DNA of 6,981 nt from a virus (IMGVR_UViG_2648501669_000014); one strand, 5' to 3'. Shown: positions 399-6,981, counted from the stretch's first letter. Translations and numbers: made by a program. The notes: generated from the letters alone by a model not told the origin.

Positions 399-818
399 AT
401 GCTAAAAACTAGGCTTATCACCGATTACATCAATTCTTTAATAGGTCAGGAGTTCGTTCAAGGCGAGAATGATTGCAATCTCATTGCATGTAAGATCATC
501 GATATTCTCGCTGGTACTGACCTATATAATTCTCTTTATAAAAAATATTCAACTAAAGAAGAAGGCTTGAAAATCTGCAAAGAATTAAGCGGATATTCAA
601 ACATCCTTCAACCAATAAAGAAACATTTCAAATTAGTCACTGATGATTTACAGGACGGCGACTTACTGGTCACAGCCCACAAATTAGGAAACCGTAATTA
701 TTATTCCGTAGTTCCTCATTATTCCGGTTATGGCCTCGTTGAAGAAGATGGTATCTGGATGACCATTCCTGTTTCAGACATTGACTATGAACAAGTTTAT
801 AGATTCGGGGGTGAATAA
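399..818 (+). CDS. Tail assembly protein K-like NlpC/P60 (C40) cysteine peptidase, 139 aa
   Basis: ATG 399 lies 8 nt after GGAGG (386..390). The product has a D-C-N-L-I catalytic-Cys-like motif near the N-terminus and a later GDLLVTAH/VVPHY region consistent with the NlpC/P60 Cys...His...His order. Stop TAA 816..818 overlaps the next ATG (TAATG). Position before the J-like gene matches lambda K. No JAB/MPN motif present. Confidence 0.75.
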   Translation: MLKTRLITDYINSLIGQEFVQGENDCNLIACKIIDILAGTDLYNSLYKKYSTKEEGLKICKELSGYSNILQPIKKHFKLVTDDLQDGDLLVTAHKLGNRNYYSVVPHYSGYGLVEEDGIWMTIPVSDIDYEQVYRFGGE

Positions 819-3800
819 TGGGATTTGAAATATTGGTAGGCGCGGTGATCGCTGGTGCTTCGGCGGGGATGGCGGCAGCCGCAACATTTTCTGTTATGAC
901 CGCAGTCGCTATCGGTATGGCTGCTGGTGCAATGACCTTGATCGCTTCCACTGTAGGCGCACCAAAAACACCTAAAGTACAAAGCCCAGATAATGCGGTG
1001 ACACTAGGAACATCAAACGATCCGAAGACAGTATTACCCGTTCTTTTCGGTGTTACCCGTACTGGTACAAACTGCGTTTACAAAGCAATTTCTAAAAGAG
1101 AAAACAATAAGTTAGTGCAAATCTTCGCTGTAGCAGAGGGTGAAATCGACCACTACAAAGCACTGTTTATCGATAATAAAAATGTTCTTGTTGGTAAGAA
1201 CATGACGATCCGTGATGGCATTCTCGATAAGGGCAACATTAAAGAAGAATACCGGAAAGTGTTGGAGGTTGAGTTCCGCACGGGTAAGAATCCTAACACC
1301 GCTTTGTCACTGGCAAAACAGCATTTAGGCTCAGACTGGACCGATGCTTACAAGGGTAACGGCATTGCAACCATGTGTATTGTGTTACGTCGTGATGACA
1401 AATCTCTTGCTGCTGGTGTTGATATCCTTCAACCAAATAGCCAAGTGGCAGTCGATGTTATGGGCTTAAAGATTCGTAACCTTGAAACCAATGCTATTGA
1501 GGCTAGCACTAACGGCGTGGACCAGATTTTCCACTACCTAACAAATGAAAAATATGGCTTATCCGTACCAATTGAAAACATTAACGTTGATTCATTCCTG
1601 AAAGTACGTAAGCAAGTACGCCAGATGGATTTGCATTCAAACGGTGCATGTGATCCGAACGCCAGCTTTAAAGAGAACTTAACTAGCCTTATGCAGACTT
1701 TCGGCGGGGTGATGTTCGAATCCTTCGGAAGAATTACCCTGAAACTGGATGCTCCTGATATTGTTAAGCATACCTTCAATGAAGACAATATCATGATGGG
1801 TAAGGTATCACTGAAAACAGGTGGCACTAACGGTTATTTCAATACCATTAACGCGATGTATCAGGAACCATCAATTGACTATTCCGAGCAAATGCTACGT
1901 TATCCGGCTGATGCTGAAAACGATGCTACTATTCGTCAAGATGGTCGAATTATCGCTAAAGATATTGAATATCGTTTTGTTAAGTCTAAAGCCCAGATTG
2001 ATAAACTTGCGAGTGTAGAACGAAATAAATCTCGTATCACTCAGGTTATCAGCTTTATGACTACTGACGCATTCACTGCCGAAGTTTGGGACGTTATCAG
2101 CGTAACCTATGATGAATTGAAACTGAATAATTCACTTTGGCGTATTACCGCAATTGATCGTTCTATTGATTCTGGTATTGCTGGGATGATGACTATCACC
2201 GCTACAGAATATAATTCTCAGGTTTATACTGACCTGAACTATGCGGCAACTCCAGACAATAGACCAAGTGGTTTACCGGATTCAATGACAGTACAGAAGC
2301 CTACTAATTTCAGAATTAAGGCAACTGGCGAGACGATTTACGGTAAAAACGTTACTTTGACATGGGATGCACCGGAAGATTTTAACCGCTACGGCTTCCA
2401 GATTGATTACCGTGTAAGCGGATCACCTAACTGGATTAAGTTGGGACAGACTTCACAGCAAATTTTCAGTGTCAATGCACTGGCAAAAGATCGTTCCTAC
2501 GATTATCGAGTTTGTGCTTTCGGTATCATCGCGCGATCCGATTGGGTAGAACTGGTTAACCAGAATCCTACCGTTACCTATGAATTGCCGACTCCGGTTA
2601 TTCGAATCAAAAATCAGGGTAGCACGCCAGGAACTTTCGAAGGTAATGATCTGATTATCGAATGGGAAAACCAGCAACAATTAGATGTGATGATCAACGG
2701 TGAAACTAACAAGTTTAGTGACCTGTTTGAAGCATACATTATCAAGGTGACTAACAAGGCTGGTAAGTCTATTCAGTACCGTACCCGCGATCCTGAATCA
2801 TGGACTTATACGCTTGATATGAACCAGTTTAACGGCCTTTCGCGTCAACTGACGGTAGAAGTATCAGCTAAGGGCTATAACAACTCAGAGAGCGCCCCAG
2901 CGCGTTTAGTGGCTATCAACCCACAACATAAGCCAATGAAAGGTTTTAGTGCGCGTGGTGGCTTTAATACTGCGTTTGTTAGCTGGGCGGATGACGTAGA
3001 ACATGACTATGCAGGGTCAATCATCCAGTATGCAACCGACAACACTTTCTCAGATGCAAGGGCAGTAAGCACGAATAGTGTTAGCCATACTTCCTTTGAT
3101 ATTGCTGACGGTGATTATTATATCCGTGGTGCTCACTACGATATTTTCGGTATGGATGATGCTGTTTGGTCTGAACCGTATTTCATGCAAATGAAATCTA
3201 CCATTAGCTGGGACGATCAGGACAAAGAAGCACTGGAAGACCTGATTGGTTTACAAGATCGCTTAGATGAAACCATCGCTGATGCTATTGCTCAAGCTGG
3301 CGCTAATGCCGATGCTAAAATTGATGCAATGCATAAGCAAATCACTACCGAGACGGGTAAAACTGTTCAAGCCTCAGCCGATACCTTAAAGAGTCTGATT
3401 GCTTCTGGTGATAAGGCAAGTTCAACTAAGATTGATCAGGTTAAAGCTGAACTGAAAGGCGATATCACCAAAGAAGTTAGCGCCTCCGCTACAACCCTGA
3501 AACAAGCTATTGCTACCAGTGAAGCAGCAAGCGCAAGTAAGATTGACCAAGTTCGGGTAGAAATGGATGGCAAGATTGCTGGTGTGAATCAGGAAGCGGA
3601 CGTTAAGATCGATGCTTTGAAGGGAACCATTAACAGCAAATACAATCTAGCAGTTAATGCAGATGGTCGCGTGGCTGGCATTCACATGAGCGCAACTAAC
3701 GATCCGGCACAACCGACTAAAATCATCTTTACGGCTGATAAAATTGCTGTAGCTCCGCAGAACGGGACCGATGTTTGCCCGTTTGGTATCGAAGGTAACA

Positions 3801-4594
3801 AGGTTTATCTCGATAATGCGATGATTCGTAATGCCTCAATCGGATCAGCACAGATTACTGATGCTAGTATCACCACGGCTAAAATTGGCAATGCTGCGAT
3901 CAATTCAGCGAAAATCCAAGACGGCGCGATCACCAACGCCAAGATTGTAAATGGCGCAATTGATAACGCTAAAATCGGTAACTATATCCAGTCTTCCAAC
4001 TGGAACGGATCTACCGGATGGCATATCAATAAGAACGGTAGTGCTACGTTCATGAACGCTACCGTTAAAGGTAATATCACGGCTGATTCCGGTACTCTGA
4101 ACAACGTCACGATTAACTCTAGCTGTGTTATTAAGGGTATGCTTGAAGCTACTCAGGTTAAGGGTGATTTCGTTAAGGTGATTGGTCGTAAGTTCCCACA
4201 CCGTGATGTTAACGTTGATAATGGTTATGGTGGCTATCCGCAAGGTACAGTAACCGTTCGCGTTGAAGATGATCACAAGTTCGATCGTCAAATCGTTATT
4301 CCGGCAATTAGTTTTGGTGGATTGCGAGCGCGTGAAGGGTCGAACAATAATACCTATTACGACACCTGTCGCCTGATTGTTCGTAAGAATGGGTCAGAGT
4401 TGTATAATAGGGCGTATGGCGGTAATACTGGTCTTTACTCAGGTGTTATTGATATGCCAGCGGGTAAAGGTGCTGTGACCTTGACCTTTGAAGTGCAATC
4501 AAGCGCAATCAACAACTGGACGCCTAGCACATGGATCAGTGATTTAACTGTAATGGTAACTAAAAAAGCTACTACGGGTATTACTGTTTCTTAA
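818..4594 (+). CDS. Central tail fibre / host specificity protein, lambda gpJ family (1258 aa), with a gpI-C-terminal-like hydrophobic N-terminal module
   Basis: Uninterrupted 3777-nt ORF with GGGGG SD at 806..810. The C-terminal ~180 aa are colinear with my recollection of the lambda J C-terminus (SGTLNNVTI, DDHKFDRQIVIP, VIDMPAGKGAVTLTF, VMVTKK...GITVS versus lambda SGTLSNVTI, DDHPFDRQIVVLP, IVDMPAGRGNVILTF, VMVIKK...GISVV). Central FN3-like repeats (about 2260..3200). The first ~95 aa are a Gly/Ala-rich hydrophobic stretch ending in VLPVLFG, resembling the lambda gpI C-terminus (VLPVLYG). Confidence 0.93.
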   Translation: MGFEILVGAVIAGASAGMAAAATFSVMTAVAIGMAAGAMTLIASTVGAPKTPKVQSPDNAVTLGTSNDPKTVLPVLFGVTRTGTNCVYKAISKRENNKLVQIFAVAEGEIDHYKALFIDNKNVLVGKNMTIRDGILDKGNIKEEYRKVLEVEFRTGKNPNTALSLAKQHLGSDWTDAYKGNGIATMCIVLRRDDKSLAAGVDILQPNSQVAVDVMGLKIRNLETNAIEASTNGVDQIFHYLTNEKYGLSVPIENINVDSFLKVRKQVRQMDLHSNGACDPNASFKENLTSLMQTFGGVMFESFGRITLKLDAPDIVKHTFNEDNIMMGKVSLKTGGTNGYFNTINAMYQEPSIDYSEQMLRYPADAENDATIRQDGRIIAKDIEYRFVKSKAQIDKLASVERNKSRITQVISFMTTDAFTAEVWDVISVTYDELKLNNSLWRITAIDRSIDSGIAGMMTITATEYNSQVYTDLNYAATPDNRPSGLPDSMTVQKPTNFRIKATGETIYGKNVTLTWDAPEDFNRYGFQIDYRVSGSPNWIKLGQTSQQIFSVNALAKDRSYDYRVCAFGIIARSDWVELVNQNPTVTYELPTPVIRIKNQGSTPGTFEGNDLIIEWENQQQLDVMINGETNKFSDLFEAYIIKVTNKAGKSIQYRTRDPESWTYTLDMNQFNGLSRQLTVEVSAKGYNNSESAPARLVAINPQHKPMKGFSARGGFNTAFVSWADDVEHDYAGSIIQYATDNTFSDARAVSTNSVSHTSFDIADGDYYIRGAHYDIFGMDDAVWSEPYFMQMKSTISWDDQDKEALEDLIGLQDRLDETIADAIAQAGANADAKIDAMHKQITTETGKTVQASADTLKSLIASGDKASSTKIDQVKAELKGDITKEVSASATTLKQAIATSEAASASKIDQVRVEMDGKIAGVNQEADVKIDALKGTINSKYNLAVNADGRVAGIHMSATNDPAQPTKIIFTADKIAVAPQNGTDVCPFGIEGNKVYLDNAMIRNASIGSAQITDASITTAKIGNAAINSAKIQDGAITNAKIVNGAIDNAKIGNYIQSSNWNGSTGWHINKNGSATFMNATVKGNITADSGTLNNVTINSSCVIKGMLEATQVKGDFVKVIGRKFPHRDVNVDNGYGGYPQGTVTVRVEDDHKFDRQIVIPAISFGGLRAREGSNNNTYYDTCRLIVRKNGSELYNRAYGGNTGLYSGVIDMPAGKGAVTLTFEVQSSAINNWTPSTWISDLTVMVTKKATTGITVS
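3301..3625 (+). repeat. Imperfect periodic repeats (about 111-114 nt, 37-38 aa) encoding a KID-x-[VA] motif-bearing, Ala/Ser/Thr/Lys-rich, probably helical segment of the J-like protein
   Basis: AKIDAM (about 3313), TKIDQV (about 3428), SKIDQV (about 3539) and VKIDAL (about 3604) recur with similar flanking ...SA.TLK..IA.S context. The DNA pair actaagattgatcaggtt / agtaagattgaccaagtt is visible directly. Confidence 0.6.
3818..3982 (+). repeat. In-frame tandem 30-nt repeats (5-6 copies) encoding a 10-aa unit A-K-I-x-[ND]-[AG]-A-I-x-x inside the J-like gene
   Basis: Translation reads ...AMIRNASIGS AQITDASITT AKIGNAAINS AKIQDGAITN AKIVNGAIDN AKIGNY... with codon boundaries at 3818, 3848, 3878, 3908, 3938, 3968. 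Confidence 0.85.
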
Positions 4595-4612: not shown

Positions 4613-4655
4613 TAATCCCGCTTAATTCTTTTGAGTTAGGCGGGATTATTTTTAT
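4613..4655 (+). terminator. Rho-independent terminator downstream of the J-like gene
   Basis: taatcccgc (4613..4621) pairs with gcgggatta (4640..4648); the stem extends by U-G/A-T pairs to about 13 bp with a roughly 10-nt loop. Followed by TTTTTAT (4649..4655). Lies 19 nt after the J stop. Confidence 0.8.
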
Positions 4656-4698: not shown

Positions 4699-4977
4699 AT
4701 GACTGAAATTATATATGGCGGTATCGGTGTTATCGCCTTAATTTGCGGTGGTCTTTGGAGACTTCACCGAAATCAATTAGCAACTGAAAATAGGTTATCT
4801 AAATTGGAATCCAGCGACGCATTGTTAAACCAGAAGTTTGAGACGATGCAGAATAACCATACTCAGATTGCTGAACGTGTTTACCAAATGGAACAAACAC
4901 TACACGGTATAGAGAAGAAAGTGGTTGCGATGGATGCTAAATTTGACCAAGTTCTCGACATACTCAAACAAAAATAA
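4699..4977 (+). CDS. Small membrane-anchored protein, 92 aa: N-terminal TM helix plus C-terminal predicted coiled coil; function unknown
   Basis: ATG 4699 is preceded by GGGGG (4690..4694). Residues 4-20 (IIYGGIGVIALICGGLW) are hydrophobic and followed by RLHR, which by the positive-inside rule puts the C-terminus in the cytoplasm. The remainder is heptad-like and charged (LSKLESSDALLNQKFETMQ...). Confidence 0.7.
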   Translation: MTEIIYGGIGVIALICGGLWRLHRNQLATENRLSKLESSDALLNQKFETMQNNHTQIAERVYQMEQTLHGIEKKVVAMDAKFDQVLDILKQK

Positions 4978-4995
4978 TAATAAAGGGGTGAATAT

Positions 4996-5166
4996 ATGAA
5001 GAATAAACTTAAGAAATATTTTGGTTATCTCTTGATTGTCGCCCTCACTTATAACGTAGCTATTAGACCTCTGCTAACGTCCTTTGGGCTTGAACTCCCG
5101 GCTATGACCGTGGATGAACAATTGCTAAGGACACTGGCGGGGGTCTTTTCGTTATTAGGGGGCTAA
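4996..5166 (+). CDS. Small hydrophobic protein, 56 aa (not in the supplied ORF track); function unknown
   Basis: ATG 4996 lies 7 nt after AAAGGGG (4982..4988). My translation is MKNKLKKYFGYLLIVALTYNVAIRPLLTSFGLELPAMTVDEQLLRTLAGVFSLLGG, ending TAA 5164..5166. Basic N-terminus then a hydrophobic helix; no Cys, so not a lipoprotein. Stop is 1 nt before the next ATG. Confidence 0.5.
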   Translation: MKNKLKKYFGYLLIVALTYNVAIRPLLTSFGLELPAMTVDEQLLRTLAGVFSLLGG

Positions 5167-5889: not shown

Positions 5890-6237
5890 ATGGCTAAAAA
5901 TATTTTCACTGAATTTCCTACTTATCCGGTCGATCAGCTTTCCGGTATTTTTATTAATGGCATTAGTCCAGAATCAATGACTTATGATTTTGAGGCGAAG
6001 AGAGTTAAACATAAACAATATAAAGAATGTATCCGCGATCATGAAAAAGGGACCGTGTTTTGTGTCGCTACATTGGCTAAACGTCCTAAGTATCGTTTTC
6101 GTGTCGGGCAAGAAGTCGATGTAGTTAATCCTTATAGTTTTAACTGTCTGGGTGATGCACGCGCGGTGTGTGTAGGCACAACTAATTACTACATTAAAGG
6201 ACTCAGATTTACCGGGTATATAATGGAATACATCTAA
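5890..6237 (+). CDS. Hypothetical protein, 115 aa; function unknown
   Basis: ATG 5890 with GGGGG SD. Last gene before the second terminator. The overlapping antisense ORF 5974..6318 lacks supporting signals. Confidence 0.65.
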   Translation: MAKNIFTEFPTYPVDQLSGIFINGISPESMTYDFEAKRVKHKQYKECIRDHEKGTVFCVATLAKRPKYRFRVGQEVDVVNPYSFNCLGDARAVCVGTTNYYIKGLRFTGYIMEYI

Positions 6238-6251
6238 CTCTAATAAATACG

Positions 6252-6280
6252 AGCGACCAATTTCGGTCGCTTTTTTATTT
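6252..6280 (+). terminator. Rho-independent terminator after the four-gene cassette
   Basis: agcgacc (6252..6258) pairs with ggtcgct (6265..6271), 7-bp GC-rich stem with a 6-nt loop, followed by TTTTTTATTT (to 6280). It abuts the GGAGG SD (6281..6285) of the next gene. Confidence 0.8.
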
Positions 6281-6289
6281 GGAGGAATC

Positions 6290-6739
6290 ATGGAGATTTT
6301 ATTTGCTGAATATATCAACTACACCGGATTTACAAGAAAAACGCCTCTTGACTATGAACCTATTGCCATTAAACGTTGTGATGAGTTGGGGTACATCTAT
6401 AACGGTTTTGTTGTGCCGTGGAAAGGGCAACATACACCCGTTTCTATAACCTGCAAGAAACATAGCACAACGCGAACAATTGCTTTCAAAACTCTTAAAA
6501 AACAAGGTGCGTGTCTTGAATGCTATAAAGAATCATTAAAACTTCCTAAGAAAAAGAATAGAGATAAGGAAGCTGTATTAGATAAAGCAAGCAATGTGCT
6601 GGAACGCAAAGATATGGTTTTAGTTGGATTGTTAGAAGATTATAAAGGATTAGACACAAAAGTTTCTTATAAGTGCAATTGCTGTGATACTGCATACGAA
6701 ACCATAATCACTAGAATCATAAACGATGATGCTGGGTAG
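6290..6739 (+). CDS. Cys-rich protein with two tandem zinc-ribbon-like modules (at least 149 aa); 3' end interrupted by IS2, likely C-terminally truncated
   Basis: ATG 6290 lies 5 nt after GGAGG. Contains C-x2-H-x16-C-x2-C (CKKH...CLEC) and a second related module (VSITC... / VSYKCNCC...). The terminal TAG (6737..6739) is the first 3 nt of the IS2 left end, so the native C-terminus is missing. Confidence 0.7.
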   Translation: MEILFAEYINYTGFTRKTPLDYEPIAIKRCDELGYIYNGFVVPWKGQHTPVSITCKKHSTTRTIAFKTLKKQGACLECYKESLKLPKKKNRDKEAVLDKASNVLERKDMVLVGLLEDYKGLDTKVSYKCNCCDTAYETIITRIINDDAG

Positions 6740-6981
6740 ACTGGCCCCCTGAATCTCCAGACAACCAGTATCACTTAAATAAGTGATAGTCTTAATACTA
6801 GTTTTTAGACTAGTCATTGGAGAACAGATGATTGATGTCTTAGGGCCGGAGAAACGCAGACGGCGTACCACACAGGAAAAGATCGCAATTGTTCAGCAGA
6901 GCTTTGAACCGGGGATGACGGTCTCCCTCGTTGCCCGGCAACATGGTGTAGCAGCCAGCCAGTTAAGTCGCTGGCCTACAC
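6737..6981 (+). mobile_element. IS2 (IS3 family) insertion sequence, left end; continues beyond the window
   Basis: Sequence from 6737 (TAGACTGGCCCCCTGAATCTCCAGACAACCAGTATCACTTAAATAAGTGATAGTC...) matches my recollection of the IS2 left terminus and leader. It is followed by the insC start. The left terminal inverted repeat is about the first 41 bp (6737..6777). Confidence 0.9.
6828..6981 (+). CDS. insC: IS2 transposase OrfA (InsC), 5' portion; 3' end outside the window
   Basis: Translation [46 protein letters not shown]... matches remembered IS2 InsC. ATG 6828 is preceded by GGAGAA. Confidence 0.9.

Follow-up and report, generated by a model that had tools for sequence, protein, structure and literature searches.

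Homing endonucleases of the T5orf172 type have been surveyed in phages, where 87% of 229 such proteins were reported to carry at least one CapR/DUF723/DUF4397 zinc-finger module, frequently in several copies 'like beads on a string', and where their genes mark boundaries of genetic exchange (Barth, Dunham & Seed 2023; PMC10448857). CapR, a protein of the Vibrio cholerae satellite PLE, was shown to bind DNA, for which four conserved cysteines are needed, and to be derived from the N-terminal region of putative ICP1 T5orf172 homing endonucleases (Netter et al. 2021; PMC8096241). Free-standing endonucleases of phage T4 are known to spread by intronless homing with co-conversion, while terminators and hairpins located in front of T4-type endonuclease genes hold their expression low (PMC2988022).

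The stretch of DNA analysed here (designated the window) is the complete 6981-bp contig JRQF01000015.1 of assembly GCA_000768125.1, which is derived from the late region of an E. coli prophage and has its 3' end inside an IS2 element. Positions 6238..6739 very probably represent the 5' portion of a free-standing cassette that encoded a homing endonuclease in a temperate E. coli prophage and that was disabled when IS2 inserted into it. The following features were assigned.

818..4594: tail-tip J-like gene (Pfam Phage_Tail_Tip and Ig_GpJ_C)
Between the tail-tip J-like gene and the ORF at 6290..6739: four small genes
5890..6237, + strand: conserved prophage gene of 115 aa, upstream of the insertion site
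6181..6237: last ~57 nt of the 115-aa gene, with a donor-type haplotype that accompanies the endonuclease cassette
6238..6289, + strand: 5' leader of the cassette, with hairpin and Shine-Dalgarno sequence, absent from endonuclease-free alleles
6290..6739, + strand: truncated ORF of the putative homing endonuclease (native residues 1-149 of 345, then an IS2-derived TAG)
6347..6541, + strand: module 1 (aa 20-84), a complete CapR-type Cys/His module (module profile E = 2e-22)
6569..6736, + strand: module 2 (aa 94-149), cut by IS2 (profile matches stop at 51-55 of ~61-62)
6737..6981, + strand: left end of IS2 (inverted repeat TAGACTGGCCCCC; orfA ATG at 6828)

The closest likeness is to the T5orf172 endonucleases of vibriophage ICP1 (e.g. 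gp165 and gp174) and of other phages, which share the N-terminal Cys-rich tandem modules and the C-terminal domain of the T5orf172/MUG113 type (GIY-YIG clan), and which are also free-standing intergenic genes at sequence-exchange boundaries. Unlike those genes, the present gene resides in a temperate E. coli prophage whose integrase is a serine recombinase, where it is flanked by a late gene and the endolysin gene; its second ligand is mostly His (CHCC), compared with the CxxC...CxC reported for CapR, and the window copy has been destroyed by IS2. The words 'prophage' and 'temperate' are absent from the published T5orf172 survey (PMC10448857). T4 SegA-G likewise belong to the GIY-YIG superfamily, are located intergenically between conserved genes, and exhibit presence/absence polymorphism, flank co-conversion and expression-limiting terminators or hairpins. 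However, the nuclease domain of Seg proteins and I-TevI is N-terminal rather than C-terminal, their DNA-binding modules are of the NUMOD/HTH type rather than CapR-type fingers, and the T5orf172 motif (K-[FY]-G-I-T-N, D-G-Y-T-E-T) differs from the canonical GIY...YIG.

The ORF at 6290..6739 is present as given in the preliminary description, on the + strand, with an ATG start and 149 aa, and is preceded by the Shine-Dalgarno sequence GGAGG (6281..6285). A matching gene was identified in three complete E. coli genomes (ETEC4090, E275a and HCP5S3_I4), with 99.6-99.8% nucleotide identity, the DNA up to base 6737 being 99.4-99.6% identical. The ETEC4090 and E275a alleles are uninterrupted, comprising 1038 nt and encoding 345 aa (e.g. 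WP_001767182.1, which bears the RefSeq label 'hypothetical protein'). Over the shared 448 nt, the window exhibits a single, synonymous difference from ETEC4090 and two differing sites from the second uninterrupted allele. The 149-codon frame corresponds to the front 43% of the 345-residue gene with no foreign residues appended, and the intact alleles run on past residue 149 as ...DDAG/CRHCGSIK (slash after residue 149). Since near-identical uninterrupted alleles encode 345 aa, the gene in the window has been cut short after residue 149, in agreement with the proposed disruption by IS2; the intact alleles retrieved end at residue 345 and not at residue 149. Alleles with 99.6-99.8% identity that continue without interruption also ruled out the reading of the ORF as a complete small gene.

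The stop codon of the ORF had been ascribed to the IS2 terminus, and the TAG at 6737-6739 was indeed shown to be the opening triplet of the left end TAGACTGGCCCCC. From 6737 through 6964, the sequence matches an annotated IS2 of another genome without a difference, and the terminal inverted repeat TAGACTGGCCCC... followed by orfA, the deduced product of which matches HTH_Tnp_1, identifies the element as IS2 (IS3 family). The IS2 part of the query has matches in 4709 of 5426 E. coli genomes, with the annotation 'IS3-like element IS2 family transposase'. The exact terminus was fixed by HCP5S3_I4, in which a reverse-orientation IS2 terminates ...CCAGTCTA against its 5-bp target duplication; the T of TAG therefore belongs to IS2 and, with the terminus at 6737, the stop codon is wholly IS2-derived. 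A simple insertion would place the right end of IS2, ...GGGGCAAATCCA, next to the gene sequence CTGGGTGTCGTCATTGTGGG. The last 17 bases of the contig (6965..6981) contain six mismatches to IS2, compared with complete identity over the preceding 228 bases, and would alter the orfA reading from ...QLFLWRKQ to ...QLSRWPT; this segment has the appearance of an assembly artefact at the end of the contig, or of a join to another, divergent copy of IS2. As a separate observation, the sequence to the left of the window IS2 (6720..6736, AAACGATGATGCTGGG) is similar to that left of an IS2 in ygeQ of strain PSS-15 (TAACGATGAAGATTGG; locus L006, NZ_AP027709.1, ~1501..1518), the megablast match having run 18 nt beyond the element, which may reflect a target preference or coincidence.

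IS2 is positioned between codons 149 and 150, whereby module 1 is kept, while the C150-x2-C153 pair of module 2, module 3 and the nuclease domain are lost. The missing C-terminus had been suspected to contain an effector or nuclease domain, and in the intact alleles this region corresponds to a predicted nuclease domain. Since this domain is lost, the fragment cannot be an endonuclease; full folding of a fragment with half a metal site is unlikely, and the 149-aa product is most likely non-functional. The difference of only one synonymous base over 448 nt from an intact allele indicates that the IS2 insertion is recent, and the window copy is presumably a recent pseudogene.

The internal duplication noted in the fragment is far beyond chance, as module profiles, built from distant homologues only and with close relatives left out, each matched both copies at E-values of 1e-9 to 1e-22. 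The second segment, KVSYKCNCCDTAYETII, aligns with the first module. The spacing claimed for the repeats is exact in module 1 (C55-x2-H58-x16-C75-x2-C78, with ligand codons at 6452, 6461, 6512 and 6521, respectively), where C55, C75 and C78 are Cys in 24/24 aligned homologues and a His is located 2-4 residues past the first Cys. In module 2 of the window, C129/C131/C132 are kept and C150-x2-C153 is missing, C150 and C153 being invariant among 26/26 homologues. IS2 thus takes away the second knuckle of module 2, so that only one complete module is retained in the window. The notion of a double module therefore holds in so far as a Cys/His module is repeated, but not in number, as all three modules of the intact protein were detected by the module profiles (E = 6e-5 to 1e-21).

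Alignment of 26 full-length relatives yielded the consensus hydrophobic-G-F-x-G-x-Y-x-G-x2-T-K-x4-C-x2-4-H-x~16-G-C-x2-C for each module, with ligands 1, 3 and 4 being Cys in at least 24 of the 26 homologues in every module, and ligand 2 being His or Cys, 2-4 residues after the first. For the CapR homology domain (PF21817), the reference pattern consists of two conserved Cys pairs separated by ~16-26 residues. The window fragment matches Pfam CapR in two stretches (E = 2.1e-7; 31.4 bits, compared with a curated cutoff of 24.2), and among the 26 relatives CapR was detected in 26, DUF4379 ('probable treble clef zinc finger') in 11 and DUF723 in six. On this profile evidence, the modules are of the CapR-homology/DUF4379 type, i.e. 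the predicted DNA-binding repeats of T5orf172 homing endonucleases; judged from the conservation of their ligands, they may bind zinc. In the AlphaFold model, each module is represented by a helix-strand-strand-strand-short helix topology (module 1 pLDDT 93-96), with the Cys-x2-His knuckle between strands and with C75/C78 and C150/C153 beginning helices 76-84 and 151-157, respectively; this predicted secondary structure is only indicative of treble-clef-like, not ribbon-like, modules. A PDB profile search with the modules returned nothing significant (best E >= 0.035), and the sole thematically relevant match in a PDB sequence search was a weak one to a DUF4379 mitoribosomal factor (E = 0.11).

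The zinc-binding domains of DnaG exhibit a CHC2 spacing similar to C-x2-H-x16-C-x2-C, and the closeness of module 1 to this spacing had led to a comparison with the DnaG/CHC2 zinc ribbon, by which the product would be a primase- or replication-related protein. The probability of this reading is close to nil. In Pfam searches, zf-CHC2 was absent at E <= 1 from both the fragment and the intact protein, and at E <= 0.01 from the 26 homologues, with CapR, DUF4379 and DUF723 matching instead; the CxxC pairs of modules 1 and 2 are placed at a helix N-terminus in the model, which is treble-clef-like; and the domain following the modules is a predicted GIY-YIG nuclease, not a primase. The likeness to DnaG is confined to the Cys-x2-His ... 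Cys-x2-Cys spacing, with no detectable sequence relationship, another predicted topology and another domain context.

The C-terminal domain of the intact protein (aa ~230-345) displays the motif F-Y-V...I-K-Y-G-I-T-N...R...E...D-G-Y-T-E-T, within which Y241, K250, G252, R262, E292 and D311-G312-x-T314-E315-T316 are invariant among the 26 full-length relatives. The conserved Tyr, Lys-x-Gly, Arg and Glu of T5orf172/MUG113-type domains are thus all present. Pfam MUG113, T5orf172 and GIY-YIG were detected in 14, six and one of the 26 relatives, respectively, and none of these three profiles matched this protein itself significantly, so that the nuclease assignment leans on homologues and on the predicted fold. 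Further support was obtained from phrog_681 ('endonuclease'), which matched the fragment at E = 3e-13 and the intact allele at E = 9e-43 (aa 25-340). From these alignments and models, the intact gene was shown to encode three tandem CapR-type modules followed by a predicted C-terminal GIY-YIG-superfamily nuclease domain of the T5orf172/MUG113 type.

The AlphaFold model of the whole intact protein reached a mean pLDDT of 87.5. When the domain was modelled alone (pLDDT 90), the top six Foldseek matches were to Slx1, with a probability of up to 0.99 and a weak E-value of 0.026. The sequence identity to the SLX1 nuclease domain (PDB 7wme, 6seh and 7cq2) is only 10-16%, and SLX1 differs in being eukaryotic, in having a RING/PHD finger C-terminal to the nuclease, in needing SLX4 and in not being sequence-specific. 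The whole-protein Foldseek search against the PDB returned nothing at E <= 0.001; its top rows, which are tandem dsRNA-binding-domain proteins, were dismissed as not meaningful for a flexible multidomain model (pTM 0.40). PDB sequence searches with the intact protein and with the nuclease-domain profile yielded nothing significant, and NCBIfam returned nothing useful. An HNH reading was also discarded: phrog_559 ('HNH endonuclease') matched only aa 34-236, i.e. the module region, which is indicative of shared DNA-binding repeats and not of an HNH domain.

The family is large, an exhaustive HMMER search with the 92%-identical allele having retrieved 1583 representative clusters at E <= 1e-3. 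Relatives were found by translated search in 207 phage records, including T4-like Escherichia, Klebsiella, Aeromonas and Vibrio phages and others. Phage genomes often hold two or three family copies, several of which are labelled endonuclease, GIY-YIG nuclease or putative homing endonuclease. The prophage segment as a whole had no megablast match in the phage collection. Two divergent family members were observed in passing. UTME-9 (locus L005, 6852..7850) encodes, at another site of its related prophage, downstream of the endolysin gene, a 332-aa paralogue with ~32% identity across the N-terminal and nuclease regions, in which several module-1 Cys ligands are replaced and which has no Pfam match; it may represent a degenerating second endonuclease. 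A 508-aa metagenomic protein (P0006) has the family modules and nuclease fused N-terminally to ATP-dependent DNA ligase domains (PF01068 and PF14743), which could represent an endonuclease that entered the 5' start of a phage ligase gene without shifting its frame, or else a fusion created by gene calling.

The cassette, consisting of hairpin, ribosome-binding site and ORF, comprises 1082 bp and was shown to be inserted exactly between the TAA of the 115-aa gene and GGGGGTAATATG. Endonuclease-free prophages (14EC029, PK8568 and UTME-9) read directly from TAA through 9 nt (GGGGGTAAT) to the ATG of an M15 peptidase (endolysin) gene. The endonuclease ORF ends in ...TAT AGG GGG TAA, whereby it borrows its last two codons and stop from the endolysin ribosome-binding site and leaves that site intact. 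The upstream 1.7 kb of DNA is present in 55 complete E. coli genomes, of which three contain the cassette, while it was undetectable in the remaining 52 even by word-11 blastn. Three alleles (100, 92 and 83% protein identity, the latter two from other assemblies) share one site; only a handful of carriers are known.

Comparison of the window with the endonuclease-free 14EC029 revealed near-identity along ~1.35 kb upstream (0-2 differences per 50 nt), followed, where the insertion is reached, by a jump to 18 differences in 50 nt. At the end of the 115-aa gene, 22 of 57 nt differ, resulting in six amino-acid changes, and this 57-nt haplotype is common to all endonuclease-bearing alleles. The megablast similarity of most endonuclease-free genomes ends at window position 6179, and no comparable divergent tract was found in the downstream flank. 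A free-standing gene that is present or absent at a fixed site between conserved genes was thus observed together with a linked flanking tract, and this combination of presence/absence and flank is the pattern that would be expected, by analogy with the free-standing endonucleases of T4 (PMC2988022), of double-strand-break repair with co-conversion of a short flank. The 57-nt tract alone is no proof of homing, as a donor-type flank is likewise present in UTME-9, which is free of the endonuclease; ordinary phage mosaicism, an ancestral haplotype or a precise loss that left the tract behind could account for it.

A terminator scan located a hairpin with an 8-bp stem and a six-base loop at 6251..6272, followed by a T-run at 6273..6279, and a folding energy of -21.7 kcal/mol was calculated for the 86-nt leader (z = -3.5 compared with shuffles). 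The preliminary description had placed the gene directly after a terminator with no room for its own promoter; the hairpin is real, the leader is 52 nt long and no sigma-70-like promoter was found in it. The gene does follow a terminator, but this hairpin belongs to the inserted cassette and is not a pre-existing host feature. The stem and T-run are invariant in the alleles with 92 and 83% protein identity, in which the coding sequence and neighbouring bases have changed. Given the conserved hairpin and a 52-nt leader with no detected promoter, it is reasonable to propose expression by late-operon read-through or antitermination, in keeping with the T4-type endonuclease genes. In the minimum-energy fold, CUCU at the first bases of the cassette (6238..6241) pairs with GGAG of the Shine-Dalgarno sequence. 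Both sides vary in the diverged alleles with no clear compensatory changes, so that covariation lends no support to occlusion of the ribosome-binding site by this pairing, which is no more than a possibility.

Other elements of the late region were recorded alongside. A strong terminator-like hairpin (4613..4648; 16-bp stem, then TTTTTAT) is located directly after the tail-tip J-like gene, and the hairpins at 4613 and 6251 indicate that the late region contains at least two internal terminators for late transcription to read through. Two small genes at window 4699..5166, which are conserved across all relatives between the tail-tip gene and the endolysin region, encode products of 92 aa, ending in a coiled coil, and of 56 aa, both with hydrophobic and possibly membrane-spanning N-termini. 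The annotation shows no holin gene close to the M15 endolysin gene, and the 92-aa and 56-aa products may be lysis-related. The stretch from the endolysin gene to the serine recombinase gene is variable among related prophages (locus L011, 3375..5437; locus L007, 5423..7161), and in some of them encodes a helicase-type protein (UvsW_N/ResIII/DEAD; PADLOC PbeA-like, E = 4e-12); this stretch, at the end of the prophage, may represent a hotspot for accessory or defence genes.

A mechanism can be proposed for the intact element. In prophage or phage genomes that are free of the endonuclease, the three modules of the protein would combine to recognize an extended DNA site located where the 115-aa gene meets the endolysin gene, or close by, and the GIY-YIG domain would cleave this site. 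The break would then be repaired by recombination with an endonuclease-carrying genome, from which the cassette and a short length of flanking sequence would be copied (intronless homing). Transcription would occur only by read-through of the cassette's own conserved terminator from the late (tail/lysis) operon, a dependence that would keep nuclease levels low.

A second IS2 was identified in the same endonuclease gene of HCP5S3_I4 (NZ_CM149869.1; locus L012, 7150..8484), the upstream 1.7 kb of which is 99.9% identical to the window. This element is located 66 bp 3' of window 6736, in the opposite orientation and with the 5-bp duplication GATGG, so that IS2 has disrupted this allele in two of its four known carriers, in independent events. 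The two truncation points differ, leaving 149 and ~171 native residues, respectively. By parting the late operon from the endolysin gene, the window IS2 could possibly exert a polar effect on lysis.

Alternative accounts of the locus were weighed against that of a homing cassette broken by IS2. The intact protein may have served the prophage as a nuclease for defence or superinfection exclusion (a moron), cutting incoming phage DNA until IS2 knocked it out. This is improbable: PADLOC found no match for the endonuclease protein, the family is abundant and often multi-copy in lytic T4-like, Aeromonas and Vibrio phages, and the exact insertion in the 9-nt spacer, with the neighbour's ribosome-binding site kept and a linked flank, is as homing predicts. 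It is likewise improbable that the two IS2 events were non-random, with selection in lysogens having favoured either relief from a nuclease that is toxic and leaky or polar silencing of the downstream endolysin gene, and that the resulting nuclease-less fragments act in a CapR-like manner with domestication in progress. Chance suffices for two such events, given that HCP5S3_I4 has ~19 IS2 matches.

The suggestion that the 149-aa product is itself functional, as a CapR-like DNA-binding protein that can still recognize the target of the endonuclease and serves as a repressor or site shield in the manner of the domesticated Vibrio PLE CapR, is very doubtful. The fragment keeps one complete CapR-type module, the N-terminal region, the start codon and the Shine-Dalgarno sequence; CapR is itself a nuclease-less derivative of such a DNA-binding region and represses a phage operon (PMC8096241); and a second, independent IS2 lies in the same gene of another strain. 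Against this, the fragment differs from an intact allele by a single synonymous base, which leaves no time for selection on it, module 2 breaks off halfway through its metal site and probably misfolds, the different truncation points give no sign of a selected product, and the IS2 load of HCP5S3_I4 makes chance insertion plausible. CapR (Pfam PF21817) has a homologous Cys-rich DNA-binding domain and, like the window fragment, is missing the nuclease domain; however, CapR is a conserved, selected, nuclease-free regulator, whereas the window fragment is an evolutionarily days-old accident of one and a half modules.

The homing endonuclease cassette described here has an architecture that is already published, and the window copy is an ordinary, broken member of the CapR-repeat/T5orf172 homing endonucleases. 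The assignment names, and supplies a mechanism for, a gene that is annotated only as 'hypothetical protein', with modest consequences and with no question newly testable beyond the ICP1 or T4 systems. As a caveat for assemblies, when a gene fragment at the end of a contig has its stop in an IS terminus, truncation is the reading to adopt. For the CapR-repeat/T5orf172 family, which is known mainly from lytic Vibrio and T4-like phages, the locus indicates that its members also occur in temperate E. coli prophages, and it represents a natural example of the full life cycle of such an element, from precise intergenic invasion with its flank to subsequent decay by an IS.
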